Assembly (NCBI GenBank): GCA_030698805.1
Contig: JAUYMA010000003.1
Span: 12,167 to 76,166, forward strand
DNA length: 64,000 nucleotides
Origin: Nanobdellota archaeon
GTDB taxonomy: Archaea > Nanobdellota > Nanobdellia > Pacearchaeales > GW2011-AR1
Direction: 5' to 3'
Shown here in pieces: positions 12,730-44,037 of this stretch. A model generated the notes under the pieces. That model had not been told where the DNA came from and did no database searches. It saw nothing but the letters and a program-made list of their open reading frames with translations. Within the stretch, counting starts at the first letter, position 1, and each line of letters opens with the position of its first letter. Made by a program: the position numbers and the translations under genes.

Positions 12730-12744
12730 CTGAATATAAATTTT

Positions 12745-22468: not shown

Positions 22469-22469
22469 G

Positions 22470-22895: not shown

Positions 22896-22922
22896 GAAAG
22901 AATTCTTCAGTGATGCAAGAAA

Positions 22923-26114: not shown

Positions 26115-26115
26115 A

Positions 26116-27998: not shown

Positions 27999-29103
27999 TA
28001 GAACCGTAGAAGGAAGAATGGCTTATATTCAGAGGTTAGAAGCTAAAGTTAAGAAAGCTGTTAGCGGGGATGTTGATGAGGATTATAGAAAGCTTATTGC
28101 TGAACCGTTAGAAAAAGCTAGAGGCATACCATATTTTGATGATAAACATGCAGCCGTATCTGGAAAACCATTCACATGGGGAAATTTATCAGTAATTCCT
28201 GAAATTGCTGGAATTAGGAATATACACCACCATACTCTTGCAGGGCAGATAGAGCAAGTTAAGGCTTGTGTTGATAATTATTTTAGAATGCTGTTAGAAC
28301 CAATCGCATCCATGCCTTTCTTTTATGCTGATCCTGCATACGATGTTGAGCCAAATTGTGTTGGAGCCAGCCAAATTGTTAGTCGTATTTATGGTTATGA
28401 GCACCCCATTGATGATTTAGAGATGCTTGTAGTTAATTCATCTAAAAGGCGAGATATCTTGCTTGATAAGTTGAGGAACTTTGATAAGCTACCTGGAGCA
28501 ATTGTAGCTGGAGAGAGATGGGTTAGCAGCAATTTTGATGCTTTTAGCAAGGATTTCAGAGAGGAAGAATTAAGAGATAAATTACTTGACCAGGTCTTAT
28601 TGATAGAAGAGAGCAATCATGTTGTTGTGAAAAAAAGAGGGGGAGAAGTATTTGACTTTCCTATTGAAAGGGATAATATAAAGAGGCATGAGGTATGCGG
28701 AATTAGGGAGGGCCTTTGGGTTGCCGGAGTATCTAGCCTTATTGCTCTATACCAATACTTGAATCAGGATGTGGAGAGCCAGTGGAAAGAAATTAGGAAT
28801 AGAGTTGGAGAGGTCAGCAAATCTGCACGAGTTACCGTAGATTATTCTTTAGGGAGAGAGTGCTTTGATGAATTAAGGGAAATTTTTGGAGAGGACTTGC
28901 CTGCAAGATATGTTATGGTTGAATTAAGCTCGAGAAGAAATGAAATGGATTTTGTCAGATATGCATTGGATAGAGTGAGAAGAGAATATCCTTATCCTAA
29001 GGCCCTGGAAGTTATTGGAAAAAGGTATCTTGGGGAAGAAGGATATGGTGAACTTGCTGCAGAAATTTTGAAAGCTGAAAAAGGAGGGGAAGATGAAAAA
29101 TAA
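27982..29103 (+). CDS. hypothetical protein (373 aa), Ubl operon
   Basis: ATG 27982 overlaps the previous stop by 17 nt. No family recognised; it contains a possible nucleophile context, EPNCVGASQ. Confidence 0.5.
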   Translation: MANLIDRTVEGRMAYIQRLEAKVKKAVSGDVDEDYRKLIAEPLEKARGIPYFDDKHAAVSGKPFTWGNLSVIPEIAGIRNIHHHTLAGQIEQVKACVDNYFRMLLEPIASMPFFYADPAYDVEPNCVGASQIVSRIYGYEHPIDDLEMLVVNSSKRRDILLDKLRNFDKLPGAIVAGERWVSSNFDAFSKDFREEELRDKLLDQVLLIEESNHVVVKKRGGEVFDFPIERDNIKRHEVCGIREGLWVAGVSSLIALYQYLNQDVESQWKEIRNRVGEVSKSARVTVDYSLGRECFDELREIFGEDLPARYVMVELSSRRNEMDFVRYALDRVRREYPYPKALEVIGKRYLGEEGYGELAAEILKAEKGGEDEK

Positions 29104-29419
29104 AATAGAAAGAAAACCTTTTGTAATCACTAACTGCCATAAACGCAACTTTAGGGATTGGGTGCAAGATCAGTTTCCTGAAATAAAAAAACATTCTTTT
29201 AGTGATAGTCCTCCTTATACTGCCTTAGAAGAACGCTTTGATGAAGTCCATGCCGCAGCACGACAAGTCTTCAATATTATTTTCTCACGTTCTGATCATG
29301 ATTTACAACGCTATTATTCCCAAGATCGAACTGCTTTAGGTCAAGCTCATCAAAGAAGAGACATCCGAGCGTATGCTTGTGCACTTGATGCTTTTCTTGG
29401 GGCGATTAAGGAGGAATAA
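29093..29419 (+). CDS. unknown-family protein P4 (short paralogue, no H/C pair)
   Basis: 108 aa with an 11-nt overlap. NFRDWVQDQFPEI ... ALEERFDEV aligns without gaps to the P1-P3 core, but the conserved His and Cys are absent. Confidence 0.5.
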   Translation: MKNKIERKPFVITNCHKRNFRDWVQDQFPEIKKHSFSDSPPYTALEERFDEVHAAARQVFNIIFSRSDHDLQRYYSQDRTALGQAHQRRDIRAYACALDAFLGAIKEE

Positions 29420-29420: not shown

Positions 29421-30467
29421 ATGGACTTATATCAATTAATTACTCAGGCAGTTGGAGGATTCTCGGTTGGTTTAGGGGCCTCTTTGAATTACAAAAGATA
29501 TAATGAAGCAGTGAATAGCATGGAATATGCAAAATTAATTGATGAATCTAGATTGGGAAAAGAATTAGAAAGCAAGGGTTTGACTGAGGAAAAATTAAAA
29601 AATTGGCATGAAGCAAATCGCAGACTTAATATCTTATCTCCTTATCTTTATGGCTTTGGATTTTCAGTAGCCACTAGCATAGCCTCGTTTGCCCAATGGA
29701 ATTTTGGTGAAAATGTTTTGATTTCAGTACCATCTGCTTACCTCGGCTTTGCTGCTGGAGTCTTGACTCATAGAATTAAAAATATGAAATTTAGGGAGGA
29801 GATGCAAATAGCCCAAGAGATGAAGAGAAATCCAGATTCTATTGAAGCTCTTCTTACTGAAAATGAAAGATCAACTATCAGGACTTCCTTGGAACAAATT
29901 GAGCAAGGAATGTTTGAAGGAAGCTTTAACCCTCTTACTTCAAAGCCGCTTTTCCTAATCTACTCTACTGTAATCGAGAGAAATAAAGTTTACACGCCTT
30001 TAGTTACCCAATGGAGCTTAAAGGAAATTGAAAAAGCAATATCTTCCGGCAAATTACAAAAAGATCTTAAAGATTTCTATGAAACTCCTCTTCCCATTGG
30101 GGGGAGCATTGCTACTGCCTCCCTTAACTCTCTTGTAATAGAAAGGCCGACTCGTGTCTTTGTAAGGGAAGGGGATAAGTTTTATTCTCTAGATGTTTCC
30201 TGGAAGAATATTCGAATTATAGAACAAGATGAGACTAAAGAAGTAAGCATATGTGGCACTGCTCCGGATCTAAGAAAGATCCAAGAAGAATCTTGGAATC
30301 CTGATTACAAAACCCTGGCGCATATTGTTGAAGAGCATGGCAAAGATGCAAATAGAGTTATAATGCTCGCTCCTGAGAATACTTCTCTGGGACTTCAGGG
30401 AGCGATATTAACACAAAATTATGTGGAAGAACTAGTAAGAAGACTGAAGAATGAGAAAAAGAACTAA
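29421..30467 (+). CDS. membrane protein with C-terminal soluble domain, last gene of the Ubl operon
   Basis: ATG 29421 is 1 nt after the P4 stop, with AAGGAGG upstream. Hydrophobic segments are LITQAVGGFSVGLGASL, YLYGFGFSVATSIASFAQW and LISVPSAYLGFAAGVLT, followed by about 220 soluble residues. No family recognised. Confidence 0.5.
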   Translation: MDLYQLITQAVGGFSVGLGASLNYKRYNEAVNSMEYAKLIDESRLGKELESKGLTEEKLKNWHEANRRLNILSPYLYGFGFSVATSIASFAQWNFGENVLISVPSAYLGFAAGVLTHRIKNMKFREEMQIAQEMKRNPDSIEALLTENERSTIRTSLEQIEQGMFEGSFNPLTSKPLFLIYSTVIERNKVYTPLVTQWSLKEIEKAISSGKLQKDLKDFYETPLPIGGSIATASLNSLVIERPTRVFVREGDKFYSLDVSWKNIRIIEQDETKEVSICGTAPDLRKIQEESWNPDYKTLAHIVEEHGKDANRVIMLAPENTSLGLQGAILTQNYVEELVRRLKNEKKN

Positions 30468-31174
30468 TTATTCTTAGGGCCTAGCAAAACAAAAATATAA
30501 TCTCCATAAGTACCTTCTTCGCTATGCTCGGGCCAGGTTTTTGTAATTCCATGATGATCAAAGTGTCTTTTTACTTTAGGCAAGCGTTTTCCCAGAGAAG
30601 TCTTAAATTCATCCTTAAGAACATCATTAGCAATAATGTCTGTGCATGCTTCTATTACCTCATCTGGAGCGCCGTTTCTTATTGTGGCTGCTAAGTATTC
30701 ATATCCTAATTTGGCAGCACCCAGTTTTCTTTCAAGCTCATTAGAATAATCGTCAATATAACAATCAGAAAGAATAGCGGTTCCGGAAGGATTTAACCAG
30801 GAAGCCATGTTATGGATTAATTCTCCTTGTCTTTCATAAGGAAGATGATGTAAAGCTCCTGTACATGTTATAACATCAAATTTTCTTTGTGGTTTCCAAG
30901 TTAGAACATCTCCAACTTCAAAATGGGCTTGAGGATATTTTTTCATCCCGTGCTCGACATAACTTTGTTCAATATCCACACCATGCAAAGATAAGTCTGG
31001 TCTTTGCTGTAATAATTGGCCTTGCAAGTATCCTGGGCCGCACATTAAATCAAGAACCTTCGCACTTTTCTGGGCTACTGCACAAAGTATTTGAACAACT
31101 GTCTTGATTGATTCTCTATAAGGCCAATAAACTAATTCTTGTTCGTATGTTTCTGGAGGAGGTAAAGGTTTCAT
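30464..31174 (-). CDS. class I SAM-dependent methyltransferase (left arm, M2)
   Basis: Motif I VLDLMCGPGYL, then HGVDIE and FDVITCTGALHHLP. Confidence 0.7.
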   Translation of the reverse strand: MKPLPPPETYEQELVYWPYRESIKTVVQILCAVAQKSAKVLDLMCGPGYLQGQLLQQRPDLSLHGVDIEQSYVEHGMKKYPQAHFEVGDVLTWKPQRKFDVITCTGALHHLPYERQGELIHNMASWLNPSGTAILSDCYIDDYSNELERKLGAAKLGYEYLAATIRNGAPDEVIEACTDIIANDVLKDEFKTSLGKRLPKVKRHFDHHGITKTWPEHSEEGTYGDYIFVLLGPKNN

Positions 31175-31175
31175 T

Positions 31176-31904
31176 TTATTTTTTATAAGCTATAACCAGT
31201 GCATCTCTTTCGATGCGCTTGACAATTCTAGGCTTGGAAAATCCTGCATCTCTCAAATCTTGCAGAGCTTCGTTTTCTCTCATGACAAAGGGTTCCTGAT
31301 GATCTTGGACTTCATGCTCAATGATTGCTTCGGCCAATCCTGCAGGCCATTTATTTTTCTGACTTATTGATCTATATCTGTCAACTGCAACTTGCAATGA
31401 ACGTCTCTCTTTTCTTGGATCATCTGATACGAATTTGTCCATGCATAAATAAAGTGCCCCAGGAAACATGGCTTCATATCCTGTCTTTAGAATCTTCCTG
31501 CGCTCTTCTCTTGGAAAATTATGCAAAGCCCAGGCTGAAGCGAGCACATCCATTTGTCCAGCACATAGTTCTAGACAGTCCAGGACTTTAGTTCTTATAG
31601 GAAATAAACGGCCTTGAGAAATATAAGATTTAAAATTAGTAGCTAACTCCTCTTGCATTCTGTCGCTAGGATCTATGGCTATCACTTTGGATCTCTGCTC
31701 GTATTCTAAGATATACTTTGTGGCCTCTCCTCTACCGCTTCCTATTTCAACAACGTTTATTGCCTTACCCTTATGTTTTCTGAAGTGAGTAGCAATTGTC
31801 TTGCCCAATCTTCTATGCATCTCTCCACTATGCGGCCAAGCCTGAAGAAGAGTATCGTAATTATCTACTAAAATTCCCGAATATCGTGGTTCTCGAGTTG
31901 CCAT
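31176..31904 (-). CDS. class I SAM-dependent methyltransferase (left arm, M1)
   Basis: Motif I VVEIGSGRGEAT, then VIAIDPS and DVLASAWALHNF. Confidence 0.7.
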   Translation of the reverse strand: MATREPRYSGILVDNYDTLLQAWPHSGEMHRRLGKTIATHFRKHKGKAINVVEIGSGRGEATKYILEYEQRSKVIAIDPSDRMQEELATNFKSYISQGRLFPIRTKVLDCLELCAGQMDVLASAWALHNFPREERRKILKTGYEAMFPGALYLCMDKFVSDDPRKERRSLQVAVDRYRSISQKNKWPAGLAEAIIEHEVQDHQEPFVMRENEALQDLRDAGFSKPRIVKRIERDALVIAYKK

Positions 31905-31906
31905 AT

Positions 31907-32689
31907 TTACCAGCTCTTTCTAAGAGAAAGATCAAAGGTGGCAGCATGATCTTTGAAAACTCCATGCATATCATCAATTGCTTTTTGGGCTCTGACTCCT
32001 GCATTTAATGAATATCCCCTTCCTAGATCTGCCCCCACATTTAGTCCAATAGCGGCAACTGAAAATCCAGAATCAGGTACGAAGTATCTATTATTGTAGG
32101 AGAGTCTGCTTTCCACTCCAAGAGTTAATCTATCTGTTAATGGAAAATTCTTGCTTAGCTTTAATTGGAATAATTGACCTTCGTGGCTTATTTCTCCATA
32201 AGACTGAACAGCTGTAAAAGTGACATCTACTGGCAACTTCTTTGTTTGCACACTTACTCCCAGAGTATATGCATCTTCCAATTCAGTATTTGGAAATGTG
32301 AACCAGTAAAATTCAGGCCTTATCCTGAAGTTCTCTGTTTCAAGATTGAGAGTTAGAGAGTTGTCTAATTCGTTCAATCCATTCTTCATATCATAATTAC
32401 CCCAGAGATTGTAAGATAGTTTTCCTATATTAAATCCCATATCACTTTGAATGACTGGTCCTTCTGATAAGGTAAAACCATATGTTCCCATATATCTTGA
32501 ATGCCAACTTGTGCCTACAGAGAAATTGCTAGGTTTTAGAGAGAAGGTTTCTTTTTCTACTGACACATCTGCAGCTCCTGCTGAAGGACTTTCTCCATCA
32601 TCTGCCTTTGTGCTTACTGTAGTAGTTGCAAGAATACCTGCAAGTCCTAACGATGCTATCTTTCCTATTGTTCTTGTTGTGTTTTTCAT
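31907..32689 (-). CDS. secreted beta-rich protein, outer-membrane beta-barrel-like (left arm)
   Basis: Start trimmed to ATG 32689 (MKNTTRTIGKIASLGLAGILATTTVSTKADD is a signal peptide). Amphipathic alternating beta-strand patterns throughout. The C-terminus ...ATFDLSLRKSW ends in an aromatic residue. Confidence 0.5.
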   Translation of the reverse strand: MKNTTRTIGKIASLGLAGILATTTVSTKADDGESPSAGAADVSVEKETFSLKPSNFSVGTSWHSRYMGTYGFTLSEGPVIQSDMGFNIGKLSYNLWGNYDMKNGLNELDNSLTLNLETENFRIRPEFYWFTFPNTELEDAYTLGVSVQTKKLPVDVTFTAVQSYGEISHEGQLFQLKLSKNFPLTDRLTLGVESRLSYNNRYFVPDSGFSVAAIGLNVGADLGRGYSLNAGVRAQKAIDDMHGVFKDHAATFDLSLRKSW

Positions 32690-32760
32690 TTCGTGTTTTC
32701 CTTTTGTAACCACTTTATGATTACAATAATATAATGAAAAATTAGCTATTAATATTTTAT

Positions 32761-32777
32761 TGATATTATTAATATTA
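32761..32777. promoter_or_regulatory. operator-like TGATAT-N5-ATATTA upstream of AbrB-PhoU copy 2
   Basis: TGATATTATTAATATTA, followed by GTAAGATTTAAAAT (a TATA region resembling the 41-nt element), about 43 nt upstream of ATG 32819. Confidence 0.4.
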
Positions 32778-32818
32778 ATAATAGTAAGATTTAAAATGGG
32801 GGGAAACTTAGAAAAGAG

Positions 32819-33730
32819 ATGCAAAGAAAGCTTATTGGCCAGGGTTTAGGAGGAATTACTGTTCACTTACCTAAAAGATGGATCGATGCTCATCACTTGA
32901 AGAAAGGAAATGAGATAGACATAGAAGATTCTGAAGGAAAATTGATAATATCCCCTAAAAAGATAAATAAAGATAAAAAAGAAACTTCTATCAGGCTCTC
33001 AGGATTAGAAGAATCTCTTATTAGAACACTTATTGCAAATACTTACAGGTTAGGATACGACTCTATCAAGGTAGATTTTGAAAATGAAAAACAATTTCAA
33101 ATATTAAATGAGATAATTCAAAAAAGATTAATTGGTTTTGAGATAATCAAAAAAGATTCCGGAAGCTGCATTGTAGAAAATGTGACTGAACCCGAAGAAG
33201 ATCAGTTTGGTAATATTATGCAGAAGCTCTTTCTTAATATAGATACATTGCTGGAAAATATTAATCAACTATGCTCCTCGGATAAAGCTCAGATTAGCGA
33301 GAGTATTGATGAACTAGATGATAGGATACTGAAATATGACAATTTCTGCAGGAGGATATTATTAAGAAGGAGATTTGATGAAAAATCTGCTTTGCATTTA
33401 GCTTTCTTGACTATGATTATACATGGAGAAAGAGAATTATATTATCTTTCTAAGTCTATTGGCAAAGGTATGAAGTGCTCTTCAGAAACTCTTAAGATTA
33501 TAGGTGGTATTGCTCAAATTAACAAACTTATTCAAGAAGCCTATAATAAGAAAAAATTTGATAATCTAGCAGATATTAATGCTATTGGAAGGAGAATTAT
33601 CTATAAAGAAGGCTATAAATTAATGGAAAATAAAAAAGGAAAGGAGCTTATTGTGATACATCATCTCTTAGCATGCACCAGGGATTTTTACCAAGCAGTC
33701 AGCCCATTGAGCGGATTATTGTTCACGTGA
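32819..33730 (+). CDS. AbrB/SpoVT-domain plus PhoU-like regulator (module copy 2)
   Basis: MQRKLIGQGLGGITVHLPKRWIDAHHLKKGNEIDI N-terminus and a helical body with YDNFCRRILLR. The 3' end overlaps the kinase 3' end by 15 nt. Confidence 0.75.
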   Translation: MQRKLIGQGLGGITVHLPKRWIDAHHLKKGNEIDIEDSEGKLIISPKKINKDKKETSIRLSGLEESLIRTLIANTYRLGYDSIKVDFENEKQFQILNEIIQKRLIGFEIIKKDSGSCIVENVTEPEEDQFGNIMQKLFLNIDTLLENINQLCSSDKAQISESIDELDDRILKYDNFCRRILLRRRFDEKSALHLAFLTMIIHGERELYYLSKSIGKGMKCSSETLKIIGGIAQINKLIQEAYNKKKFDNLADINAIGRRIIYKEGYKLMENKKGKELIVIHHLLACTRDFYQAVSPLSGLLFT

Positions 33731-35887
33731 CCTATATTCTATGACCTTCTCTGCGAAATCCTGAGAAGGCACTGAAATATTCCAATCAAGCAGTTTATAT
33801 CCATTATTGTTTGTTCCGTGATATATTGGATAGGCGGTAGAGAAGTTAGTCTCCCCCGTCTTATTGTTTATCAAGTCGATAAGCAGAGTATATTCTCCAT
33901 GGGGTGTTTCATTGCCTGGAAGGGGAATGTAATGAATATACTTATTAGTTTCAGAGAATCCTAATTCAGGTATTGAATAAGTTGCAGATAAATCTCCTTT
34001 TTCATTTAAATGATATGTTCTTTCTTCTTCGAAAATTCCATTAGTATGAATATATGTACTTACCCCAACATCATTGTCCCCATATGAAAACCTAAGCCCT
34101 GTGATTCGTGCATGTCTGTTAGGTATATCTCCTACTACTATGGGAATTCTTTGTTGCGCTAAGATATTGTTTGTATTGCAATTTATTATAAATTCTCCCT
34201 CATCTTTAGGGTTTGCAGCTCTTGGTGGGAGAGAATCGACAAGGAGAGTATAATTTCCAGAAGGGAAATTAGTGGGGATTTTTATTGTGGTTGAAGAAGG
34301 ATACCCTGATCCAAAAGGCAAGTTTTTAGGAGGAACTAACTTAGGATCTCTAGAAGATGTATTGAATATCTCTGGAGAGATATTGGTATTGCCTTCTACT
34401 GCAACTTCGATAGGATAAATTAAATAAGGAACCCTAAATTGTTTTGATTGAAGAGGTTTCTGAATAATATTTGCGAATACTCTCACCTCATCTCCTTGTT
34501 GTAGATGCAATATTGATGTTTTTTCTGGATATCTTTGACCTGGAGCAACTGCCCAAGTACTCAATTCATAAAGAGCTGAGGGCTGGAGATTATTATTACC
34601 GTCCCAATCCGAATTAATCTCAATTGTTCTTTCTTTATCGTTCAATTGCTTTTCTGCATCTTTAAGTTTGGCATTATCTAAATGAGCATAGTAGCCAAGC
34701 GCAGAGATTGCTAAAGCACTTGCGGCTGCTGCAACAGTATTTCTTGGGGAAGAAGGTTTTTCCCAAAATGATGGACTAGAGGCTTCCTCAAATTTTTCTA
34801 GAAGTTTACCTAAATTATTTATGCGACTCGAACCTAAAGTCAATCCATGATAAAGGAGGTCTCTAAATTTTCTTGCATTTTTTGGTAGCTTACTCAATGC
34901 CTTATTTAGTTGTGATTCATATTGATTGACATCGAGGTGCTCTGGACTATAAGGGTCAACTATGAGGAAATCTTTTCCTAAAAGCATCATACCAAACATT
35001 TTCGTTAGAGAGTAAACTTCAGAAGCCTCATCATAATGTGAGGGCTTACCTGTTCTTGAACTCATTAGTCTAGGATCGCAAGTGGTTCTTCCTGGGCAGG
35101 AATGAGTATAGCTATCCACTACTTCTCCGTCGACTCCTGCTGCAGAAGTATCAGTTATCACTATCTCTCCTAATCTGTCTTCCAAAGAAACTAAAACATT
35201 AGAAGGTTTTAAGTCTCTGTGAAGATGGCCTGTCTTCTGCCTGAATCTCTGAGCCGAACTAAACATTTGCTCTGCAAATGAAGAAGCAATTGGCAAAGGA
35301 ACCTTCTCCTTTTGGTCTAATATGTCTTGAAGAGAAACTGATGGAATAAAAGTTTCAGCATAAGCATAGCTTCCTGCATATCCGACATCGGATAGTTCCT
35401 TGCAGGCTATCGGGGCTGAAAATCCTGGCATTCGCTGAAGATTTAGCGCCATATTTGCTTCTCTCCTAGCATTATAGCCCTTCCTAAAATGTTTAAGCAT
35501 AGCTGGAGAAGGATTATTCAGCATAATCTCTCCCTCGGGTTTATCCATCTTAACTGCAAGGCGAAGATTATTGCCTGAACCATCAAATACCGATTCTGCT
35601 ACAAATACTGTTTTAATGTTCCCCTCCGCACAATAGGCCCAATTAGTGTAATCTGGGAATTTTTTCTTTAGAGCATCTACCTTTGTCTTTAATTCTAAGG
35701 AAAGATCATTATAAGGAGTAATTCTAGGCCCTTGTATTTCTTGGAGAAATTCCTTGAGAGTCATGGTCCTTTGAGGCTTCTCAAATAAAGATTTTATGCC
35801 TCTCCATACATACCCAATATAATCTGGTCCTGGAAATTGACTTTGGCCCTTTCTTACCTTAACAAGTGCTACCTCTAATTCAGGCAT
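33716..35887 (-). CDS. membrane-spanning Hanks-type Ser/Thr protein kinase (module copy 2)
   Basis: LAVKM, HLHRDLKPSNVLV and ITDTSAAG. One TM (VAAAASALAISALGYYAHL) and a roughly 330-aa C-terminal ectodomain homologous to that of copy 3. Start set at ATG 35887 (8-nt overlap ATGCCTGA); the track start is 35911. Confidence 0.8.
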   Translation of the reverse strand: MPELEVALVKVRKGQSQFPGPDYIGYVWRGIKSLFEKPQRTMTLKEFLQEIQGPRITPYNDLSLELKTKVDALKKKFPDYTNWAYCAEGNIKTVFVAESVFDGSGNNLRLAVKMDKPEGEIMLNNPSPAMLKHFRKGYNARREANMALNLQRMPGFSAPIACKELSDVGYAGSYAYAETFIPSVSLQDILDQKEKVPLPIASSFAEQMFSSAQRFRQKTGHLHRDLKPSNVLVSLEDRLGEIVITDTSAAGVDGEVVDSYTHSCPGRTTCDPRLMSSRTGKPSHYDEASEVYSLTKMFGMMLLGKDFLIVDPYSPEHLDVNQYESQLNKALSKLPKNARKFRDLLYHGLTLGSSRINNLGKLLEKFEEASSPSFWEKPSSPRNTVAAAASALAISALGYYAHLDNAKLKDAEKQLNDKERTIEINSDWDGNNNLQPSALYELSTWAVAPGQRYPEKTSILHLQQGDEVRVFANIIQKPLQSKQFRVPYLIYPIEVAVEGNTNISPEIFNTSSRDPKLVPPKNLPFGSGYPSSTTIKIPTNFPSGNYTLLVDSLPPRAANPKDEGEFIINCNTNNILAQQRIPIVVGDIPNRHARITGLRFSYGDNDVGVSTYIHTNGIFEEERTYHLNEKGDLSATYSIPELGFSETNKYIHYIPLPGNETPHGEYTLLIDLINNKTGETNFSTAYPIYHGTNNNGYKLLDWNISVPSQDFAEKVIEYRSREQ

Positions 35888-36047
35888 TTTCTTTCTCCTC
35901 CAGATTTTCATGAATGAGATCTATCTTCAATTGAGTAAGCATGCCTGGCTTAATTATTCCTTCAAGATCTTTTGGAATTACAATTACTGATTGCCTGCCG
36001 TGTTTTGCAATTCTTTTAGTTATAATAATTGATTTTGGGCCTTTCAT
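35880..36047 (-). CDS. small AbrB/SpoVT/MazE-like protein (module copy 2)
   Basis: Hand-translated 55-aa ORF absent from the track (MKGPKSIIITKRIAKHGRQSVIVIPKDLEGIIKPGMLTQLKIDLIHENLEEKENA). Confidence 0.6.
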   Translation of the reverse strand: MKGPKSIIITKRIAKHGRQSVIVIPKDLEGIIKPGMLTQLKIDLIHENLEEKENA

Positions 36048-36049
36048 TT

Positions 36050-36068
36050 GATACATCAGAGATGTATC
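36050..36068. promoter_or_regulatory. perfect palindrome gATACATc-aga-gATGTATc (ATACAT-N5-ATGTAT), left operator
   Basis: 8-bp arms with a 3-nt spacer, 3 nt upstream of the minus-strand small-ORF ATG (36047). Confidence 0.55.
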
Positions 36069-36082
36069 AGGTATATTTAAAT

Positions 36083-36123
36083 GTAACTATAAAGTAATAA
36101 CAAATCGTAAGATTTATATATGC
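36083..36123 (+). promoter_or_regulatory. conserved 41-nt promoter element (copy B) with TATA box
   Basis: gtaactataaagtaataacaaatcgtaagatttatatatgc, matching 18039-18079 at 38 of 41 positions. TTTATATAT is at 36113-36121. Confidence 0.6.
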
Positions 36124-36125
36124 CT

Positions 36126-36144
36126 TATACATACTTTATGTATA
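36126..36144. promoter_or_regulatory. perfect palindrome tATACATa-ctt-tATGTATa (ATACAT-N5-ATGTAT), right operator
   Basis: 8-bp arms with a 3-nt spacer, between the TATA box and ATG 36154. Confidence 0.55.
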
Positions 36145-36153
36145 ATTAGAACT

Positions 36154-36312
36154 ATGGAAAGCAAAAAATTCGTTATAACGAAAAAAGTCGCCAAGCATGG
36201 AAGCCAGGCCATCATAGTTATCCCTAGAATTCTTGAATCTGAGCTTAAACCTGGCACTATTGCTCAAGTGACTATTGAAATTATAGAAAGCCAAGGAGGA
36301 CAAAATGAGTGA
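36154..36312 (+). CDS. small AbrB/SpoVT/MazE-like protein (module copy 3)
   Basis: Hand-translated 52-aa ORF absent from the track (MESKKFVITKKVAKHGSQAIIVIPRILESELKPGTIAQVTIEIIESQGGQNE). Confidence 0.6.
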   Translation: MESKKFVITKKVAKHGSQAIIVIPRILESELKPGTIAQVTIEIIESQGGQNE

Positions 36313-38434
36313 GACTGGGGTTTCTACAAGAGAGGAAATAATAAAAATAGCCAGAGGCGTTTTGCCCCGAGGTAAATATCATGATTTGAAGTCTTTTGAC
36401 GAAGAAGAAGGCGCCCAACGAATTTGTTTGACTGCAAATAGAGGTATACCTCCTCATACTCAAGAGGTTTTTATTAAAATTGATAAGGAGCCTGTCGGAG
36501 AAGCAGCCTCTAGATTAAAAGAAGGGGGATATACCACACATCAAGAAGTAAAAACTCTTCTAGAAATTCCAGTGGATGAGGCTATTCATAATCATTTGAG
36601 CCCGGTAGTAGATTTCTATATGAGTGCATCTACTGGCTCTACAATATCTGTAGAACCCAGATTTAAAGGTGCCAAGTCTTTGAAGAGAAGGGTGGCAGAG
36701 CAAGGCCCGTTAGACACTAAAGAATTTGAAGATTTTATGCGCCAATATGTTCAGGCCAATGTATATTTAATTAAAAATAGAAGAATGGTGCATCGAGACC
36801 AGCACCCTAAGAATATTTTGATAGGGCCTTCTATAAATGGAAAGGGATTGGAAGCAAGACTTACTGATATGACTACTGCGACAACTTTGGATTCTATTGA
36901 CCAAAGCAGTTCTACAACTTGGGGGGCCAGATCGATAAGGCACTTTGCATATGGCAATTCTTCATTTGAGAAGAGAATCGGAGCAGAACAAGCTGAGATA
37001 TATTCTATTGGTATGAATGCTATCTTCTCTTTGACCGGCATGTTCCCGGTTTATTATGATAATCTTAATGGAACTGGGATTAGCGCATTTACTGGTGAAA
37101 ATCTTCTAAATAAAGATGGAACAGTCAACATAGAGAAACATAATGAGGCTATAGAACAAGCCCTCTCTAAATTCCCGAAGAAAGCTAGAAAGCACACTGG
37201 ATGGATAAAGAAATGTGTAAATGGAGATGTGGATAAGCAGTACAGGTCTATTGATAGTCTTGTTAGAGATTTTGAAAGAACAGTTACCCCTACCCTAATT
37301 GATAGAATGAGAAGTATTCCTAAGAAAGTTAAAGCAGGATTAGCTGCAGGTCTTGCCGCTTTGACAATAGGGGGCGGTGCGCTTACCTATGAGATTATTG
37401 AAAAAAATAAGGAACATTCTGTCCAACTTGCAGAAGCAAGTAGATACAAAATTACTGCAGAATGGAATGGACTTAACCCTCAGATAAGAAATAATTTATT
37501 TGAAATGAAGGCAAGCTTATACGGCAAAGATTATAGTAAGGGATATCCTAGAAATAAATTCTTAAGAGTTGAAAGAGGACAAGAGCTTAGCGGACATATA
37601 GAATGCAAAGAATATCCTCGTCAGCAAAATTCTAGATTAGGAGATTTCTATTCCTATTCGGGCCAGGCTTATATAGAGGGTTATCCCCTTGAAGAAGGAA
37701 TCTCTGATACTTTTGGAGTGACCCCCATACCTTCAAATGAAGCTGGCGCTTACGCAGAAGGGGCTTACTTTGGAGGAGACTTTAGGATAAAGATACCTAA
37801 AGATCTAAGAGATGGTGTATATAGCTTGGCTATTGCCACTTATGCTCCCACTGAAGAAGTAATAGCTAAAAAAGAATCTGAAAATAGAAGGACTGCAACT
37901 TCTGTTAATATAAAATTTACCGCCCCTGGAAAGGCCTTAACATTAAAAACTATTCCACTCATAGTTGGAGATCCTAAACCTGCTTTAGCACAGCACGAAT
38001 TTAATATTAACAGCTTTGATGATAATATCTCCCTTGATGAAGTACAAGGAAGAGATGAATTCGGAGGAGGGCTCTCACCTCGAAGCAGTTATTTCGCTTC
38101 CACCTCTTTAGTTAATGATGAAAAGATTTCCATTTTAGGGAGAGGGATAAATAGAAGTACCTTAGGGATAAAATTACCTGAAGGAACAAATTATTTGGAG
38201 GGAGTTGCTGAAGTGGGAGTTTATTCCCTAGAGTCTAAGCAAATAATTTTCTACACCGCATTTCCAATTAGGAGAACTGAATATCCCTCACAATTGCAAT
38301 CCCCTCTTTATTTCTGGGGATTAGGCCTGCCTGGGAAAGATTTTCCTGAAAAGTTGATAGAACATAGACAGAATTTAGAGATAAAAGCTGCAGAAGCCTT
38401 TGCTAGAACTAATTATTCATTACCTAAAGAATAA
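36305..38434 (+). CDS. membrane-spanning kinase-like protein with divergent catalytic motifs (module copy 3)
   Basis: VFIKI, MVHRDQHPKNILI (HRD-x4-N kept, Lys replaced by His) and RLTDMTTA; no clear Gly-rich loop. One TM (AGLAAGLAALTIGGGALTY) and an ectodomain homologous to copy 2. 8-nt overlap ATGAGTGA with the small ORF. Confidence 0.75.
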   Translation: MSETGVSTREEIIKIARGVLPRGKYHDLKSFDEEEGAQRICLTANRGIPPHTQEVFIKIDKEPVGEAASRLKEGGYTTHQEVKTLLEIPVDEAIHNHLSPVVDFYMSASTGSTISVEPRFKGAKSLKRRVAEQGPLDTKEFEDFMRQYVQANVYLIKNRRMVHRDQHPKNILIGPSINGKGLEARLTDMTTATTLDSIDQSSSTTWGARSIRHFAYGNSSFEKRIGAEQAEIYSIGMNAIFSLTGMFPVYYDNLNGTGISAFTGENLLNKDGTVNIEKHNEAIEQALSKFPKKARKHTGWIKKCVNGDVDKQYRSIDSLVRDFERTVTPTLIDRMRSIPKKVKAGLAAGLAALTIGGGALTYEIIEKNKEHSVQLAEASRYKITAEWNGLNPQIRNNLFEMKASLYGKDYSKGYPRNKFLRVERGQELSGHIECKEYPRQQNSRLGDFYSYSGQAYIEGYPLEEGISDTFGVTPIPSNEAGAYAEGAYFGGDFRIKIPKDLRDGVYSLAIATYAPTEEVIAKKESENRRTATSVNIKFTAPGKALTLKTIPLIVGDPKPALAQHEFNINSFDDNISLDEVQGRDEFGGGLSPRSSYFASTSLVNDEKISILGRGINRSTLGIKLPEGTNYLEGVAEVGVYSLESKQIIFYTAFPIRRTEYPSQLQSPLYFWGLGLPGKDFPEKLIEHRQNLEIKAAEAFARTNYSLPKE

Positions 38435-39297
38435 ACTAGCAAATAATTATTGAGTATTATTATTTTGTTTAACAATTGCATTAAAAGAGCATCTGAAACG
38501 CTTTTTCCTTTTATTTCTTTCTTGAGTGTTTCATAAAGTCTTGCATTTTTTACTAATTTCTCCTTATCAAAAGAAAAAATAATCTCTCGGAAATTTGCCA
38601 GAAGCTCTCTACTTCCTCTTATTGTTTCTATTTGAGACTTTGAAGACTTTTCTTTTTCTGCTTCTCCTGCAATTGCCTTGTATGTGTCCCCTATCTGTTC
38701 AAGAGAATTAATAATTGCATATATCTGATTTGTTCTCGAGTAGATAGGATAACCTTTTTTATTTAGAACTCTTAGGCAGAAATGACTTAATCTATTTACA
38801 CTGGTATCTGCCTCTATTACCTGATCCATTTTTTGTTTTTTTTCACAGGCTTGCACAAGTTCCTCTGCAATGGAATCTAGAATAAGAAAGATTCTCTTGA
38901 TGAGCTCATCAATCTCTTGTTTTTCACATCCCGTGACATCTTTTAAGATAAAGCTTGAACTTGTTTGTTTTACAATCTCAAAGCCAAGAAGCTCTGGCAG
39001 AACGCGCTTATGGAAATCCTTAACTTCACTGTAATCTTTAAACTTTACCTCTATTTCGTCCAATCCTTTTTCATATAATGCCAATAATGATCTGTTAATT
39101 AATGGAGAAAGGTCAATTACATCTATAGAGGTCCTGCTTGCTTTTTCTTTGACAGATAATGGAGAAATTTTCAGCAAATCTTCCTCCTCGATCATATTTA
39201 CTTCGTCTCCTTTATCGAGCTTATATTTTTGCACCCATTTTGCAGGCAGACTTATCATTAAAGTTGCTGCGCCTTGCTTTACTAACTTCCTCTGCAT
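38413..39297 (-). CDS. AbrB/SpoVT-domain plus PhoU-like regulator (module copy 3)
   Basis: MQRKLVKQGAATLMISLPAKWVQKYKLDKGDEVNM N-terminus and a helical body with LSHFCLRVLNK. The 3' end overlaps the kinase 3' end by 22 nt. Confidence 0.75.
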   Translation of the reverse strand: MQRKLVKQGAATLMISLPAKWVQKYKLDKGDEVNMIEEEDLLKISPLSVKEKASRTSIDVIDLSPLINRSLLALYEKGLDEIEVKFKDYSEVKDFHKRVLPELLGFEIVKQTSSSFILKDVTGCEKQEIDELIKRIFLILDSIAEELVQACEKKQKMDQVIEADTSVNRLSHFCLRVLNKKGYPIYSRTNQIYAIINSLEQIGDTYKAIAGEAEKEKSSKSQIETIRGSRELLANFREIIFSFDKEKLVKNARLYETLKKEIKGKSVSDALLMQLLNKIIILNNYLLVYSLGNE

Positions 39298-39430
39298 CTC
39301 TTTTTCAGCCTTTCATAATATATAAGCTTTTTCTTTTTTATATATACTTTATACTAATATATATAGTTTAATAACAAGGTTTAAACCTATCTTTTCTTCA
39401 TATTATTAACTAAATAGTAGTTACAATAAA

Positions 39431-40693
39431 ATGAAAGAAAAAATAATAAAGGGTCTGACAGGATTGATCGCAGCTGCAGCTCTTACAAATAGTGTTGAAG
39501 CTCAGAATGGTTCAGTATGGAATAATATTCAAGAAGCGGGCCTGGATGGAAGAGCAAAAGTTGAATATAATGGTAATTTTGATACTTCTCACACTTTGAG
39601 AGAAACTATTGCTTTTGGAAGAGAAGGAGTTTACGATGGCAGAACCTCAGTAAAGGGGCAGTTTTTTGATATTGGACGTTTGACACTTGCCCAATATCCG
39701 GATCAGGCCAGATCTCAGGAAATGTTTGGCCTCAGACTAGAACCTCAGAAGACTTTTGGACTGACTAATAATTTAATTCCTGCAAGCACGATTGTGTTTG
39801 GAAGCGTTACTCATAATGAAAATGATAGTGTAGAGGCCATAGCTTCTGAAGCTAAATGGTCATTAGACAAAAAGACTTTTTATTTAAGGGGAGAATTGCA
39901 GAATGGAAATCAATCTCTTTCCCACTTAGGGGGAACTTTTAGATACGATGCTGGGAACTGGGCTTTCCAGTTAGGAGAAGAGTATGTTTCTCAAAATTCT
40001 GGAGATTTCAATCAGATATTAGTAAATGCCTCCATAATGCCGACTCAAAATGACTTTTATGCGCTGACCTTTGCACATCAGAATTTACCAGATAATACTG
40101 ATAACAACAGAGTGAGATTCACAACTGCCCATTTCGGGAAAGATGCTTCCTGGGGACATAGAAGTTTTTTTGAATATTCATTTAATCCAGAGAAAGATCA
40201 AGAAATTATTTCTGGTCAGCTTGCCATAGTTCCTTTTGGACCCTCAACTTATGGAAAAATAGCTGCAAGACTTTTTACTGAAGATGTTTGGGAAAATGAT
40301 AGCATATTCAAGGTTATGAGAACTCCTTTCGGACTTTTTACTGAAGGAGTACCTCACTTTGATAGAATTGTTGGCGGGCAAGGCATAGAAGGATTAGGTT
40401 TTGTTGTAAATGCCTCTTCTGCAAGAACGGGGGATCAAAATTCTAAGAATATCTCCGGGCAGGTTCACTATATTGGGCGACTGCCTGGAAGCCTTTTGGG
40501 TCAGAATGAATATGGAGTTTACGCCGGTTCCAGCTACATAGATAATAATGGAAACTCTGCAACTTACCTCGATACTGGAACTACTTTGAGATTCGGAAAA
40601 CATTTCTCATTAAGGGCCGGATTTGGCATACCTATTCAGACTGAAACTAAACAGAATCTTCAGGGAGTTTTAGAAGCTGAATTTAAATTTTAA
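39431..40693 (+). CDS. secreted beta-rich protein, outer-membrane beta-barrel-like (right arm)
   Basis: Signal peptide MKEKIIKGLTGLIAAAALTNSVEAQ. Long run of alternating-polarity strands rich in G, Y, F, N and T. C-terminus ...LQGVLEAEFKF, with terminal Phe and alternating hydrophobics. Confidence 0.5.
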   Translation: MKEKIIKGLTGLIAAAALTNSVEAQNGSVWNNIQEAGLDGRAKVEYNGNFDTSHTLRETIAFGREGVYDGRTSVKGQFFDIGRLTLAQYPDQARSQEMFGLRLEPQKTFGLTNNLIPASTIVFGSVTHNENDSVEAIASEAKWSLDKKTFYLRGELQNGNQSLSHLGGTFRYDAGNWAFQLGEEYVSQNSGDFNQILVNASIMPTQNDFYALTFAHQNLPDNTDNNRVRFTTAHFGKDASWGHRSFFEYSFNPEKDQEIISGQLAIVPFGPSTYGKIAARLFTEDVWENDSIFKVMRTPFGLFTEGVPHFDRIVGGQGIEGLGFVVNASSARTGDQNSKNISGQVHYIGRLPGSLLGQNEYGVYAGSSYIDNNGNSATYLDTGTTLRFGKHFSLRAGFGIPIQTETKQNLQGVLEAEFKF

Positions 40694-40694
40694 C

Positions 40695-41435
40695 ATGGAA
40701 GGATACGAGACACAAGCCGGATTCTGGGATAAAACTGCACCAAGGGTAATGGGGGATTTAATCGGAAGGCCAAGTGCTGTTGAGTTAATGGGGAAAGGAA
40801 GGGTTAGGAGAGAAAAAATACTTGAAGCTGGATGCGGTACTGGATATACTGCTAGAATGCTTGTAGGAGAAGAGGCGATAGTTAGTGGATGTGATTCCTC
40901 TCGTGAAATGCTTGAGAAAGCAATTAAAGAAGAAAAAGATGCTCCTGGAATAGAATACAAGCTTGCAAATATAATAAGCACTGGATATGAAGGCGATAGA
41001 TTTTATGGAGTAATGTCTATAGGCGTTTTGATACATAATAATCCAAGTTTTGTCAATTTAGCATATCGTGAAGCATTCAGAGTATTAAAGCCTCAAGGAA
41101 CAATGGTTGTTTCAGTTACACACCCTTACTTATTCACTTCAGGAAGTCCTTCTATGAAGAAAGGAAAGAATTGGGTTAAGCATAGATTCCTTGGTAAAGA
41201 GAATGCAGGAAGTCGCGTGTTTGAAGAAGAATACTATGATTTAAATGGAAATAAATTTGTTTCTGAAGTGTGGGATCATTCAATTGGATTTTATTTAAAC
41301 GGGGCTGTTCAAGCAGGATTTAAACTTGAGGAAATTAGAGAACCTAAAGTAGAAGAAAAACATCTACTTCATCCTTCTTGGGGAAAAGAATACGGGTATC
41401 CTGCTTTCTTACAATTTAGGATGGTGAAAAAATGA
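40695..41435 (+). CDS. class I SAM-dependent methyltransferase (right arm, M3)
   Basis: Motif I ILEAGCGTGYTA, then VSGCDSS and FYGVMSIGVLIH. Starts 1 nt after the beta-rich gene. Confidence 0.7.
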   Translation: MEGYETQAGFWDKTAPRVMGDLIGRPSAVELMGKGRVRREKILEAGCGTGYTARMLVGEEAIVSGCDSSREMLEKAIKEEKDAPGIEYKLANIISTGYEGDRFYGVMSIGVLIHNNPSFVNLAYREAFRVLKPQGTMVVSVTHPYLFTSGSPSMKKGKNWVKHRFLGKENAGSRVFEEEYYDLNGNKFVSEVWDHSIGFYLNGAVQAGFKLEEIREPKVEEKHLLHPSWGKEYGYPAFLQFRMVKK

Positions 41436-42193
41436 ACTCTCGTGAAGGACTAAACCTTGCAGTGAGAATACTCGAAGATGAAGAAATAATAACAGGCGAC
41501 GAAGCAAACAAATATGCGGACAGACGAGATAATAGGGCATTGACTACTCGCTTAGTTGCCTTAGACATTTTAGAAAAGATTCCTATTAAAAAAGTTACTG
41601 GCAGAGTTTTGGAGGTTTGCTGTGGAGCAGGAGATTTAGCGAATAAATTATACCGTTTAACTGATAACCCAAATATTCGTGCTACTGATGGGAGTCCTGG
41701 TCTTATTGAAACTGCAAAAGTAAAATATCCTCATATTAATTTCTCAGTTGCGAATGTGCACAACCATCTCGGAAGAGGAAAGAATGATCTTGTTATCTGC
41801 AAAGATGCTTTTCACCATTTTAGTGATCCTCAAAAGAGTCTTGGAGAATTGCTAGATTTAGTTTCTCCCGGCGGATATTTGTATATCTTTGACCTTAATA
41901 GAGACTGTTCTCCAAATCATTTCCAAAGAAGAGAACAAGTCATTGTAGATCCTAATGAGAAAAGAAGATTTATACGATCTTTAAACGCCTCTTTGACTGC
42001 TGTAGAGTTCGCTGAACTTCTAAGGAAGCCTGAGATTTATGAAATAATTTCTTCAGCATTTATACATTACCCTTTTAGTTTCTCTGATGAAGCTCTGGCA
42101 AAGAGTCAAGATTTAATTGCAAAAGATGAAACTAGTGAATACAAATTGAATACCCTATCTGCAGTTTATGTCTTGCAAAGGAGGAAAAGATGA
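41432..42193 (+). CDS. class I SAM-dependent methyltransferase (right arm, M4)
   Basis: Motif I VLEVCCGAGDLA, then IRATDGS and DLVICKDAFHHFS (compare GALHHLP in M2). ATGA overlap with M3. Confidence 0.7.
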   Translation: MNSREGLNLAVRILEDEEIITGDEANKYADRRDNRALTTRLVALDILEKIPIKKVTGRVLEVCCGAGDLANKLYRLTDNPNIRATDGSPGLIETAKVKYPHINFSVANVHNHLGRGKNDLVICKDAFHHFSDPQKSLGELLDLVSPGGYLYIFDLNRDCSPNHFQRREQVIVDPNEKRRFIRSLNASLTAVEFAELLRKPEIYEIISSAFIHYPFSFSDEALAKSQDLIAKDETSEYKLNTLSAVYVLQRRKR

Positions 42194-42275
42194 AACCTGA
42201 ATTAAAATGCTTAAATTTGATTATAATGATTCCATCAATCAAATGCTTAAATATGGAATTTAGGATATATTAGAT

Positions 42276-43232
42276 ATGGATTCTCACATTGATTTACAAA
42301 TGAAACCGAGAGAAAGTATAGGTTGGGATAAATTCCTGGCTGAAACTCCCAAGGCATCTATAGCCTTGGATGGTTATGTTCTTGGAGGCCCGAACTGGGA
42401 CGAGAGAACTCTGCACGTTAACTTTGACCATCATGATAACGTGATAAGGGAAGCTACAATGTCGACTTGCATGCAAGTTTATTATGCCATTAAGGGAGGA
42501 TTTATGAAAAGATTTCTTGCAGGAAGCGAAGATGGAAAAGTCCATGTCTTCATGAACGATACTGATCAAGATAGTACTCTAGCTTACCTTCTTCTAAATA
42601 ATCACAAATTATTTGAGGGTACTGCAAGCAATCCTGCCGTGAATAGAATGCTTGAATTAATTAACAGGGCAGATATTACTGGCGGAGGATTCCCTATGAA
42701 TATCCGGGCGAAAGTTGTAAGACAGAGAAATTGGTTATTTCAACCCTACACTTCCTTGAGAAAATCGGGAAAATTGGCAGTTGCCGATGCTGGAATGCTT
42801 AGAGATAATATTGGGTCTATGGAAGAAAGATTTGCAAAGTTCTTAATGGGAGAAGCAGGAGAAGTCGAACCTGATTTAAGACATGAAATACTTTACCAAT
42901 CTCCCCATGGATGGTGGCTTGTTAATGAAATAGGGGGTACTGACGCCCGAGAATATTTATTTAGCACAGGTATGGATGCCTTTATTGCTATAGTTGCTAC
43001 TCGTCCAGATGGAAGAAGAGTTTCAACTGTGGGAAGAAGAACACGATATGTTGATTATCCTGTTCCTGAATTATATCCAGTTTATAATAAATTAGAAGGG
43101 TTGACTTTAGAGACTGGTTGGAATGGGAGCGATATTGTTGGAGGGTCTTCACGTTCATTGGGAACTGCACTTACGAACGAGCAGCTAATTTCTTCAACCG
43201 ATAGTCATTTAGCACAAAGAAAGTCTGCATGA
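42276..43232 (+). CDS. hypothetical protein
   Basis: 318-codon ORF. His/Asp-rich patches (HVNFDHHDNV, NDTDQDST) hint at a metal-dependent hydrolase, but no family is assigned. Confidence 0.4.
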   Translation: MDSHIDLQMKPRESIGWDKFLAETPKASIALDGYVLGGPNWDERTLHVNFDHHDNVIREATMSTCMQVYYAIKGGFMKRFLAGSEDGKVHVFMNDTDQDSTLAYLLLNNHKLFEGTASNPAVNRMLELINRADITGGGFPMNIRAKVVRQRNWLFQPYTSLRKSGKLAVADAGMLRDNIGSMEERFAKFLMGEAGEVEPDLRHEILYQSPHGWWLVNEIGGTDAREYLFSTGMDAFIAIVATRPDGRRVSTVGRRTRYVDYPVPELYPVYNKLEGLTLETGWNGSDIVGGSSRSLGTALTNEQLISSTDSHLAQRKSA

Positions 43233-43285
43233 AGATTGCTTTCTCATAAATAAATCTTTAAAAAAGAAGATATCTTGCTTGCAAG

Positions 43286-44017: not shown

Positions 44018-44037
44018 TCCTCATTTCATTATTAAAA

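Follow-up and report, generated by a model that had tools for sequence, protein, structure and literature searches.

The region between positions 30464 and 42193 of a 64,000-nucleotide stretch of contig JAUYMA010000003.1 (the window), from a Nanobdellota archaeon of the Pacearchaeales, contains twelve open reading frames (ORFs) that mirror one another in order and orientation about a 106-bp centre (36048–36153). Our comparisons make it probable that the region consists of two long-diverged representatives of a signalling module that occurs in multiple copies, set head to head, rather than of an inverted duplication. Reading outward from the centre, each arm encodes a small AbrB-like protein, a receptor Ser/Thr kinase, a convergent AbrB-PhoU-type regulator, a divergent signal-peptide protein and two methyltransferases. 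Since gene order is fixed in every module, setting two of them divergently about one shared element would produce the mirror symmetry, which in itself gives no evidence for an inverted duplication. A first-pass annotation of the same DNA had described a mirror-image paralogous super-module of about 5.6 kb per arm. The ORF check bears out its twelve genes with all coordinates, strands and mirrored order, and gives arm lengths of 5.58 kb on the left (30464–36047) and 6.04 kb on the right (36154–42193). The genes are as follows.

30464–31174, minus strand: left outer class I S-adenosylmethionine (SAM) methyltransferase (Methyltransf_25, E 5.9e-16)
31176–31904, minus strand: left inner class I SAM methyltransferase (Methyltransf_25, E 9e-9)
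31907–32689, minus strand: left predicted secreted porin-like β-barrel of about 12 strands, the 'barL' family (signal peptide; C-terminal ...RKSW)
32819–33730, plus strand: left AbrB-PhoU-type regulator (MazE/AbrB 32.1 bits; clade B; 3′ end overlaps the kinase gene by 15 nt)
33716–35887, minus strand: left receptor Ser/Thr kinase (Pkinase E 1.2e-6, 28.6 bits; transmembrane helix at about 393–411 of the 731-aa ORF; C-terminal domain of about 320 aa)
35880–36047, minus strand: left small AbrB-like protein, 55 aa (51% identical to the right copy)
36154–36312, plus strand: right small AbrB-like protein, 52 aa (from the ORF check)
36305–38434, plus strand: right receptor Ser/Thr kinase (Pkinase E 3.8e-7, 30.2 bits; transmembrane helix at about 342–360; C-terminal domain of about 350 aa)
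38413–39297, minus strand: right AbrB-PhoU-type regulator (MazE/AbrB 29.6 bits; PhoU 18.6 bits; clade C; 3′ end overlaps the kinase gene by 22 nt)
39431–40693, plus strand: right predicted secreted porin-like β-barrel of about 20 strands, the 'barR' family (signal peptide; C-terminal ...EFKF)
40695–41435, plus strand: right inner class I SAM methyltransferase (Methyltransf_25, E 3.8e-14)
41432–42193, plus strand: right outer class I SAM methyltransferase (Methyltransf_25, E 1e-12)

The module recurs across a set of 80 species-representative Nanoarchaeota loci collected with the small protein as probe, together with loci found via the kinases (L002, L003 and so on). The small-protein motif [IL]TK[KR][VI]AKHG occurs at 297 loci in species-representative genomes, the titles listed for which are nearly all Nanoarchaeota, Woesearchaeota or Pacearchaeota; one genome can contribute several loci, up to six or more. 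Where enough downstream sequence is available, 27 of 65 small-AbrB genes begin the triad of small AbrB, kinase and AbrB-PhoU, and 35 of the 65 head other operons with highly diverse first genes. Nearly all of about 38 AbrB-PhoU genes are convergent with a kinase behind a small AbrB gene, usually with overlapping 3′ ends. The outputs of these triads vary, comprising the two β-barrel families, lipoprotein pairs and miscellaneous genes, and the slot divergent from AbrB-PhoU is most often occupied by a signal-peptide protein ending in F or W. A tandem pair of modules in L077 carries one barrel family each. The proposal that the triad is a portable regulatory cassette beside a divergent cargo operon gains support from the 27 triads, from the varied outputs of the 38 or so and from a shared 19-nt element described below, and such a cassette is what the sequences suggest. 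We found no description of the module, as AbrB-PhoU with a kinase in archaea, in the searchable literature, and it appears here from sequence comparison in DPANN archaea only. In four loci (L026:10804–13167, L063:3046–5415, L072:3079–5300 and 11929–13107, L080:11358–13643) the barrels are replaced by tandem lipoprotein-like pairs of about 370–400 aa, with a Cys-containing signal peptide and a conserved C-terminal DG[KH], which look like substrate-binding proteins. The small-protein family shares the core ITKK[IV]AKHGxQxxIVIP...LKPGT, for example at L027:8001, L035:3642, L044:6957 and L075:8001.

Each arm has its nearest relatives outside the region. The kinase and the regulator of each arm show greater BLAST similarity to their relatives in single-arm modules elsewhere than to their counterparts across the centre. 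Neighbour-joining of 40 AbrB-PhoU proteins puts each of the three copies from the window (one per arm and one from a third module at 18.1–20.8 kb) in a deep clade of its own, and every one of these clades also contains regulators of single-arm modules from elsewhere. The single-arm versions that the first-pass annotation suggested looking for in related genomes do exist, as L086 for the left type and L003 and L004 for the right type.

The 106-bp centre is, on the evidence of its layout, a compact bidirectional promoter region with one 19-nt element between two TATA-like boxes and a palindrome after each. This layout is consistent with the divergent promoter proposed earlier for this segment, and the plan of the centre is identical in L002 and L015, where one copy of the element holds the same central position. 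The elements of the centre and of the related intergenic regions are listed below, where BRE stands for B recognition element.

18039–18057, plus strand: 19-nt element upstream of the small AbrB gene of the third module (exact consensus match)
32690–32818, unstranded: AbrB-PhoU/barL divergent intergenic region (TAATATTA / AATATCA repeats)
32706–32724, minus strand: 19-nt element GTAATCATAAAGTGGTTAC (2 mismatches), ending 17 nt before the barL start codon
36049–36069, unstranded: left palindrome TGATACATC-AGA-GATGTATCA beside the left small-AbrB start (read from the sequence)
36072–36082, minus strand: leftward TATA-like box ATTTAAATATA (given as on the minus strand), conserved in L002, L015, L003 and L086; putative promoter
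36083–36101, plus strand: single 19-nt element GTAACTATAAAGTAATAAC common to both arms (exact consensus match)
36102–36120, plus strand: rightward BRE-like AAATCGTAAG and TATA-like ATTTATATA, fitting the family small-AbrB pattern AAATAGAAAG-TTTATAWA; putative function
36125–36145, unstranded: right palindrome TTATACATA-CTT-TATGTATAA, following the TATA box and preceding the start of the right small AbrB gene
39298–39430, unstranded: AbrB-PhoU/barR divergent intergenic region (block ATATATAC-TTTATAC-TAATATATATAGTTTAATAA)
39406–39424, plus strand: 19-nt element TTAACTAAATAGTAGTTAC (1 mismatch), ending 6 nt before the barR start codon

The 19-nt element matches four times in the window against 0.35 expected, a number reached in none of 100 shuffles, and 35 times in 1.08 Mb of loci against 0–3 in shuffles, every copy lying upstream of a gene. 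About 20 of these 35 copies are at small-AbrB promoters and 10 lie directly before barrel-family genes, with the same placement before barrel genes in L002, L003, L009, L030, L056, L077 and L082. The presence of the element both at small-AbrB promoters and before barrel genes supports a regulatory cassette with its output operon. Across genomes the small-AbrB promoter has a constant order of 19-nt GTAACTAWAWAGTRRTWAC, BRE-like AAATAGAAAG, TTTATAWA, paired TATACATA/TATGTATA half-sites and ATG. The paired half-site palindromes number 40 in the same 1.08 Mb against 0–2 in shuffles, 23 of the 40 being at small-AbrB starts, and an equivalent palindrome of different sequence occupies the position of the left palindrome in L002, L015 and L086. 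Together, the small protein and this stereotyped promoter (19-nt element, BRE/TATA and paired TATACATA half-sites) look like a lineage-wide leader-regulator cassette. On the output side, the repeat type beside barL is the same as in the third module and in the left arms of L002, L015 and L086, and the right arm has another type. The block beside barR, where a AAGGTTTAAAC box also precedes the gene, is near-invariant in L002, L003, L007, L013, L036, L049, L068 and L082, whose proteins are only 35–52% identical. A scan for sigma-70 promoters and terminators gave 28 matches against 37 expected and is uninformative for an archaeon.

It could be that these genes are neighbours through genome compaction, and that the element and the palindromes are generic promoter features of a small-AbrB regulon or of a global factor, with no specific control of the barrels. 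The same element and promoter layout are indeed found at small-AbrB genes heading diverse kinase-free operons, and the variable output slot would also fit. We nevertheless regard this explanation as unlikely. Dozens of genomes, from three deep clades, keep the order of kinase, convergent AbrB-PhoU and divergent secreted protein; apart from the copies at small-AbrB promoters, all ten of the element copies that lie directly before a start codon precede barrel genes beside AbrB-PhoU; and the intergenic blocks between AbrB-PhoU and the output are better conserved than the proteins that flank them.

A second alternative concerns the origin of the symmetry. A lineage-specific inverted duplication, with copies that diverged until DNA similarity was lost, would yield the exact mirror of gene order, and four of the six pairs are detectably homologous by BLASTP within the window. 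These are the small AbrB proteins (51% over 41 aa, E 1e-12), the kinases (22% over 552 aa, E 1e-10), the AbrB-PhoU regulators (31% over the N-terminal 186 aa only, E 3e-29) and the outer methyltransferases (26% over 120 aa, E 3e-10), with the small AbrB, kinase and outer methyltransferase pairs being reciprocal best hits there. The inner methyltransferases give no BLASTP match, their common ground being the general methyltransferase fold. Homology of barL and barR was rejected, since BLASTP finds no match and an hhalign comparison of the family alignments gives 27 columns at a probability of 52%, which is not credible; the two are treated as unrelated in sequence. The paralogy first claimed for all pairs is thus retained for the small AbrB proteins, the kinases, the N-terminal part of the regulators and the outer methyltransferases, and lost for the inner methyltransferases and the β-rich proteins.

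Measured against the whole family, the kinases and regulators do not favour duplication. The regulators and the barrels of the two arms are not each other's closest paralogues, nor, family-wide, are the kinases, so that the refutation named in the first-pass annotation applies in part. Both the BLAST ranking and the neighbour-joining tree place each arm nearer to single-arm modules elsewhere than to the opposite arm. The left AbrB-PhoU protein matches the copy of the third module over its full length (E 8e-41), closer than that of the right arm. The two barrels differ in size (about 12 against 20 strands) as well as in sequence, both families occur within one arm in L009 and L046, and any two fixed-order modules set divergently would appear mirrored. 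A recent inverted repeat was rejected since no inverted DNA match between the arms exceeds 34 nt at 71%, in agreement with the earlier description of the arms as diverged and free of a recent inverted DNA repeat. With no DNA repeat, three deep AbrB-PhoU clades and kinases closer to single-arm relatives, the inverted duplication of a super-module is not upheld, and we consider it quite improbable.

The small upstream gene and the larger kinase gene behind it also recall a toxin-antitoxin-like or defence pair, in which a small AbrB/MazE-like antitoxin would accompany a kinase toxin as in HipB/HipA. The small-AbrB stop and the kinase start overlap by 8 nt on the left (ATGCCTGA) and on the right (ATGAGTGA), as ATGnnTGA in both arms, with ATGATTAA in the third module. 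Three of 63 members of the small-protein family weakly match MazE_antitoxin (best E 0.008). Against such a pair, the kinases are membrane receptors with large C-terminal domains, the module always has a second regulator and an output operon, and elsewhere the genes behind the small one are unrelated to each other, encoding binding proteins, methyltransferases, membrane proteins and a receiver-like protein. This reading was rejected as highly improbable because the downstream partners are diverse, mostly singletons, and none is assigned to a toxin family, the partners not having been scanned against Pfam.

That the junction is an assembly artefact, a chimeric join at about 36.1 kb, is scarcely credible: the contigs of L003 and L004, the nearest right-arm relatives, both stop at the same point and hint at a spot that is difficult to assemble, but a contig from a separate Logan assembly reaches from within the left kinase across the centre to the end of the right arm, a 406-kb contig of a different genome (L002) has both arms in identical order about the same junction with the same single element, and L015 keeps the shared centre. 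The orthologues in L002 are 42–76% identical to those in the window, and its kinases 42–47%. The misassembly that the first-pass annotation named as a possible refutation is therefore not borne out, because an independent assembly and a distant relative have the same arrangement. The two truncated metagenome contigs (L003:1–206 and L004:1–206; ENA and JGI, independent assemblies) start at an identical base, with the small AbrB gene 206 nt downstream, and this shared end points to variation among strains, or to a repeat, at the site where the window has its left arm attached.

A number of observations weigh against the preferred reading, that of two signalling modules placed head to head. The full head-to-head form is found in the window and L002 only. 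In L015 the left arm and the shared centre are kept, and on the right side there is no kinase, the three genes there being a short ORF, one for a small AbrB protein and one for a small β-rich protein. In L086 the neighbours upstream of a left-type arm run in the direction of that arm, and another module is arranged tail to tail. In L003 and L004 the 130 nt beyond the element, where both contigs end, contain no left small gene. A metagenome scan with the left kinase for further head-to-head cases returned one locus, L086, which is single-arm for the left type. As the head-to-head form is confined to the window and L002, with half of it in L015, the junction is therefore a narrow-lineage feature of a module that is itself old and widespread. 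The protein assignments raise further reservations. The small protein of about 50 aa plausibly has an AbrB fold, yet its window copies match nothing in Pfam, its profile has no match in the PDB, and hhalign against the AbrB domain of the regulators finds a sensible register at E 0.015 and a probability of 3%. PhoU (PF01895, cut-off 23.5 bits) is not reached by any of the window regulators, the lone match being the right copy at 18.6 bits. Both arm kinases lie below the PF00069 gathering threshold of 31.7 bits (left 28.6, right 30.2; the third kinase is above it at 88.2) and lack the Gly of DFG, so that reduced or altered activity is possible. The barrel models are of moderate confidence (pLDDT 64–68), and we know of no second membrane or barrel-insertion machinery in these archaea. 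Finally, the element also precedes small-AbrB genes that head non-kinase operons and may therefore be part of a regulon that extends beyond this cassette.

The kinases of the two arms, of about 710–730 aa, nonetheless retain the catalytic loop HRDxxxxN and the Mg-binding Asp of DFG. The left kinase has HRDLKPSN and ITDTS, with its TD(T) motif aligned with MEK1, and the right kinase has HRDQHPKN and LTDMT, with TD(M) aligned with StkP. The kinase label given at first is therefore sub-threshold for the arms, with the catalytic loop kept. In each protein the kinase domain is followed by a single hydrophobic helix and then by a presumably extracellular C-terminal domain, the faster-diverging of the two domains. 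Orthologues of the right kinase are 69% identical in L003 and 42% in L002. Compared with L002:10001–12157 in blocks of 50 aa, identity is 54–72% over most of the kinase domain and 8–42% C-terminally. The right AbrB-PhoU regulator is 76% identical in L002 and 98% in L003, whose kinase is at 69%, and by these comparisons the sensor part of the right arm is evolving much faster than the regulator. In L002 (9063–9554) and L015 (6990–7433) an extra gene of 147–163 aa without known domains lies between the left-type small AbrB gene and the kinase; it is absent in the window and L086.

The regulators, of about 300 aa and convergent with the kinase, pass the SpoVT/AbrB cut-off (MazE_antitoxin, PF04014; 24.7 bits) N-terminally in all three window copies (32.1, 29.6 and 27.0 bits), and the AbrB/MazE domain is present in 36 of 36 family members. 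PhoU is found at E ≤ 0.01 in 7 of 36 relatives, with a best value of 1.4e-5, and the large regulators have no match among PDB sequences. Of the domain labels first attached to these proteins, AbrB stands above its cut-off and PhoU falls below. An N-terminal AbrB/MazE domain with a helical C-terminal part resembles the archaeal SpoVT/AbrB and PhoU regulators such as T. kodakarensis TK2245, a SpoVT/AbrB family protein with a PhoU domain listed as chromosome-associated (PMC7325993). In contrast with proteins of the TK2245 type, the window copies are below the PhoU threshold. The literature searched yielded no instance of AbrB-PhoU in fixed convergent pairing with a receptor kinase.

Both output proteins are predicted to be outer-membrane-type β-barrels from structural models of moderate confidence. 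The AlphaFold2 model of barL (pLDDT 64, predicted template modelling score 0.58) has about 12 antiparallel strands, and that of barR (pLDDT 68, predicted template modelling score 0.66) has 20. In Foldseek searches against the PDB the top matches of barL are Omp38, PcoB, NanC and OmpG (probability 1.0, template modelling score 0.4–0.57), and those of barR are OccK/OpdK porins, Cir and PapC (probability 1.0, template modelling score 0.4–0.5). The best 50 matches for each model are all membrane β-barrels, nearly all from bacterial outer membranes. The proteins share with OccK/OpdK porins, OmpG, NanC, PcoB and MipA a signal peptide, the absence of cysteine, strands with alternating (dyad) hydrophobicity and a terminal aromatic residue (F/W). 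They differ from bacterial outer-membrane barrels in that the host is an archaeon without a known outer membrane or β-barrel assembly machinery, and in lacking sequence similarity. Neither family resembles any solved barrel by sequence, and the comparison with MipA reaches 18.1 bits, under the cut-off of 24.2. Across genomes barL proteins span 236–363 aa and barR proteins 371–467 aa. The barR family amounts to 57 representative clusters among 1.84 billion proteins. The entries with names, from two of ten barR clusters looked up and the window barL, are all hypothetical proteins of Nanoarchaeota or Pacearchaeota, and no description of DPANN porin-like barrels or Woesearchaeota porins was found in the searchable literature. 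Further β-rich proteins ending in F, of 168–413 aa, occur at L015:8183–8689, L046:13631–14257, L077:13031–13651, L068:10044–10613 and L049:5784–7025, and there may be more than two barrel-like families in or beside the modules.

We propose, tentatively and as a speculation from these models, that DPANN archaea of the Woese- and Pacearchaeota type could make genuine porin-like barrels, in at least two group-restricted families of about 12 and 20 strands, set by kinase/AbrB modules via the 19-nt operator. Were this so, the barrels would lie either in an outer layer of the envelope so far unrecognised or in a host-cell membrane, where they would be candidate channels for the exchange of material by symbionts of reduced genome. 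On either view the co-encoded methyltransferases would modify the barrel or the surrounding lipid.

The methyltransferases follow the barrels in both arms and are assigned generically to class I. Orthologues of the left outer enzyme, at 43–55% identity, are found in output operons of L006, L038 and L056 (single-arm) and of L002, and the L002 orthologue of the left inner enzyme is just 27% identical. Orthologues of the right outer enzyme are 92% identical in L003 and 51% in L002, and the right inner enzyme is absent from the right arm of L002. The NCBIfam equivalogs (PmtA, phosphoethanolamine N-methyltransferase, UbiE, BioC and Tam) are not reached, with best scores of 35–45 bits against cut-offs of 100–460, and matches in the PDB cover the Rossmann core alone. 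Leads towards a phosphoethanolamine or phospholipid N-methyltransferase and towards a Rickettsia lysine methyltransferase were weak and were not adopted, as NCBIfam and the PDB give a generic class I enzyme. In L008 (11953–12639), L046 (10855–11538) and L077 (11038–11718) a methyltransferase of about 227 aa is encoded co-directionally with AbrB-PhoU and immediately after it, the two genes overlapping by 4 nt, and because of this placement the methyltransferase is a recurrent partner of the module even outside the output operon.

A third triad lies in the window outside the mirrored region.

18098–20772, unstranded: third triad, with small AbrB 18098–18262 (plus), kinase 18231/18255–19859 (plus) and AbrB-PhoU 19843–20772 (minus)

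Its regulator belongs to clade A, other members of which carry barrel and methyltransferase outputs, and its output slot is occupied by an AAA-JAB-E1 operon, termed the ubiquitin-like (Ubl) operon. ORFs and domain matches agree with the original placing of this operon in the output position. The functional link to the kinase block that was then drawn fares less well. No E1 or JAB homologue lies beside any other triad in the 80 loci, an AAA homologue occurs near L049 only, and orthologous modules carry barrels; a conserved Ubl/E1/JAB-triad linkage was therefore rejected. In favour of some link, operator-like repeats persist in the intergenic region of the third module, as does a degenerate copy of the element some 105 nt ahead of the AAA start, and read-through control of the Ubl operon is therefore possible, unsupported as it is by conservation. 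The operon (20987–29419) encodes a proteasomal-type AAA ATPase (20987–22468), a 185-aa ORF, a JAB peptidase (22923–23900) and a ThiF/E1 protein (23888–25306), followed by three mutual paralogues without a Pfam match (25272–27676, 34–41% identical) and further unassigned genes.

A mechanism consistent with this organisation would begin with an outside cue acting on the ectodomain of the kinase. By analogy with known systems, the kinase may then phosphorylate the AbrB-type proteins, either the small one, the PhoU-fused one or both. These would bind the 19-nt element, the palindromes and the intergenic repeats, and when bound may control both the sensor operons and the barrel/methyltransferase operons, and the single shared element would couple the two arms. 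As the element lies upstream of BRE/TATA at sensor promoters and near the transcription start at barrel genes, opposite effects are possible. In B. subtilis, AbrB is phosphorylated by the Hanks kinases PrkC, YabT and PrkD (PMC6213207), and in S. tokodaii the kinase ST1565 blocks promoter binding by ST0829 (PMC7226565). The module resembles both in combining a membrane-anchored sensor kinase with a DNA-binding regulator, and the B. subtilis case further in that an AbrB-family protein is the kinase substrate there and is proposed to be so here. It differs from Hanks kinase systems in that the kinase gene is tied physically to a pair of AbrB-type genes and to an output operon, as a unit present in several copies per genome, and in that the arm kinases are just sub-threshold, with TDM/TDT instead of DFG. 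A likeness may also be drawn to bacterial two-component systems, with a membrane sensor kinase, a DNA-binding regulator beside a divergent target operon and autoregulatory sites. Unlike those, the module would use Ser/Thr and not His-Asp chemistry, and has no receiver domain, two AbrB-type proteins and convergent overlapping genes. The module is a variation on known kinase-regulator signalling whose predicted output is unusual.

The genomes of DPANN archaea are small, and to our knowledge little is known of how these archaea sense and respond to their surroundings or hosts. A lineage-wide signalling module with several copies per genome and a definable promoter and operator grammar would provide testable regulons. 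Its commonest output, a secreted protein predicted as an outer-membrane-type barrel, is unexpected in archaea and could bear on host contact.

Beyond the right arm (42276–44805) lie two proteins of 318 and 243 aa without assignment and then a metallo-β-lactamase-fold protein, which also matches the Anti-Pycsar Apyc1 family. The trio is syntenic in L003 (6331–8872), and all except the 318-aa gene are so in L002 (15240–16719). Given this synteny, the right-arm operon may run past 42193. A direct repeat containing AAATGCTTAAAT lies at 42190–42255. The window, with a G+C content of about 37%, also encodes aEF-2, aEF-1alpha, a DnaG-type Toprim protein and SMC, and a Csm6-type CARF/6H/HEPN protein (3445–4821, minus strand; Csm6 HEPN 5.7e-24) adjoins the translation-factor genes.

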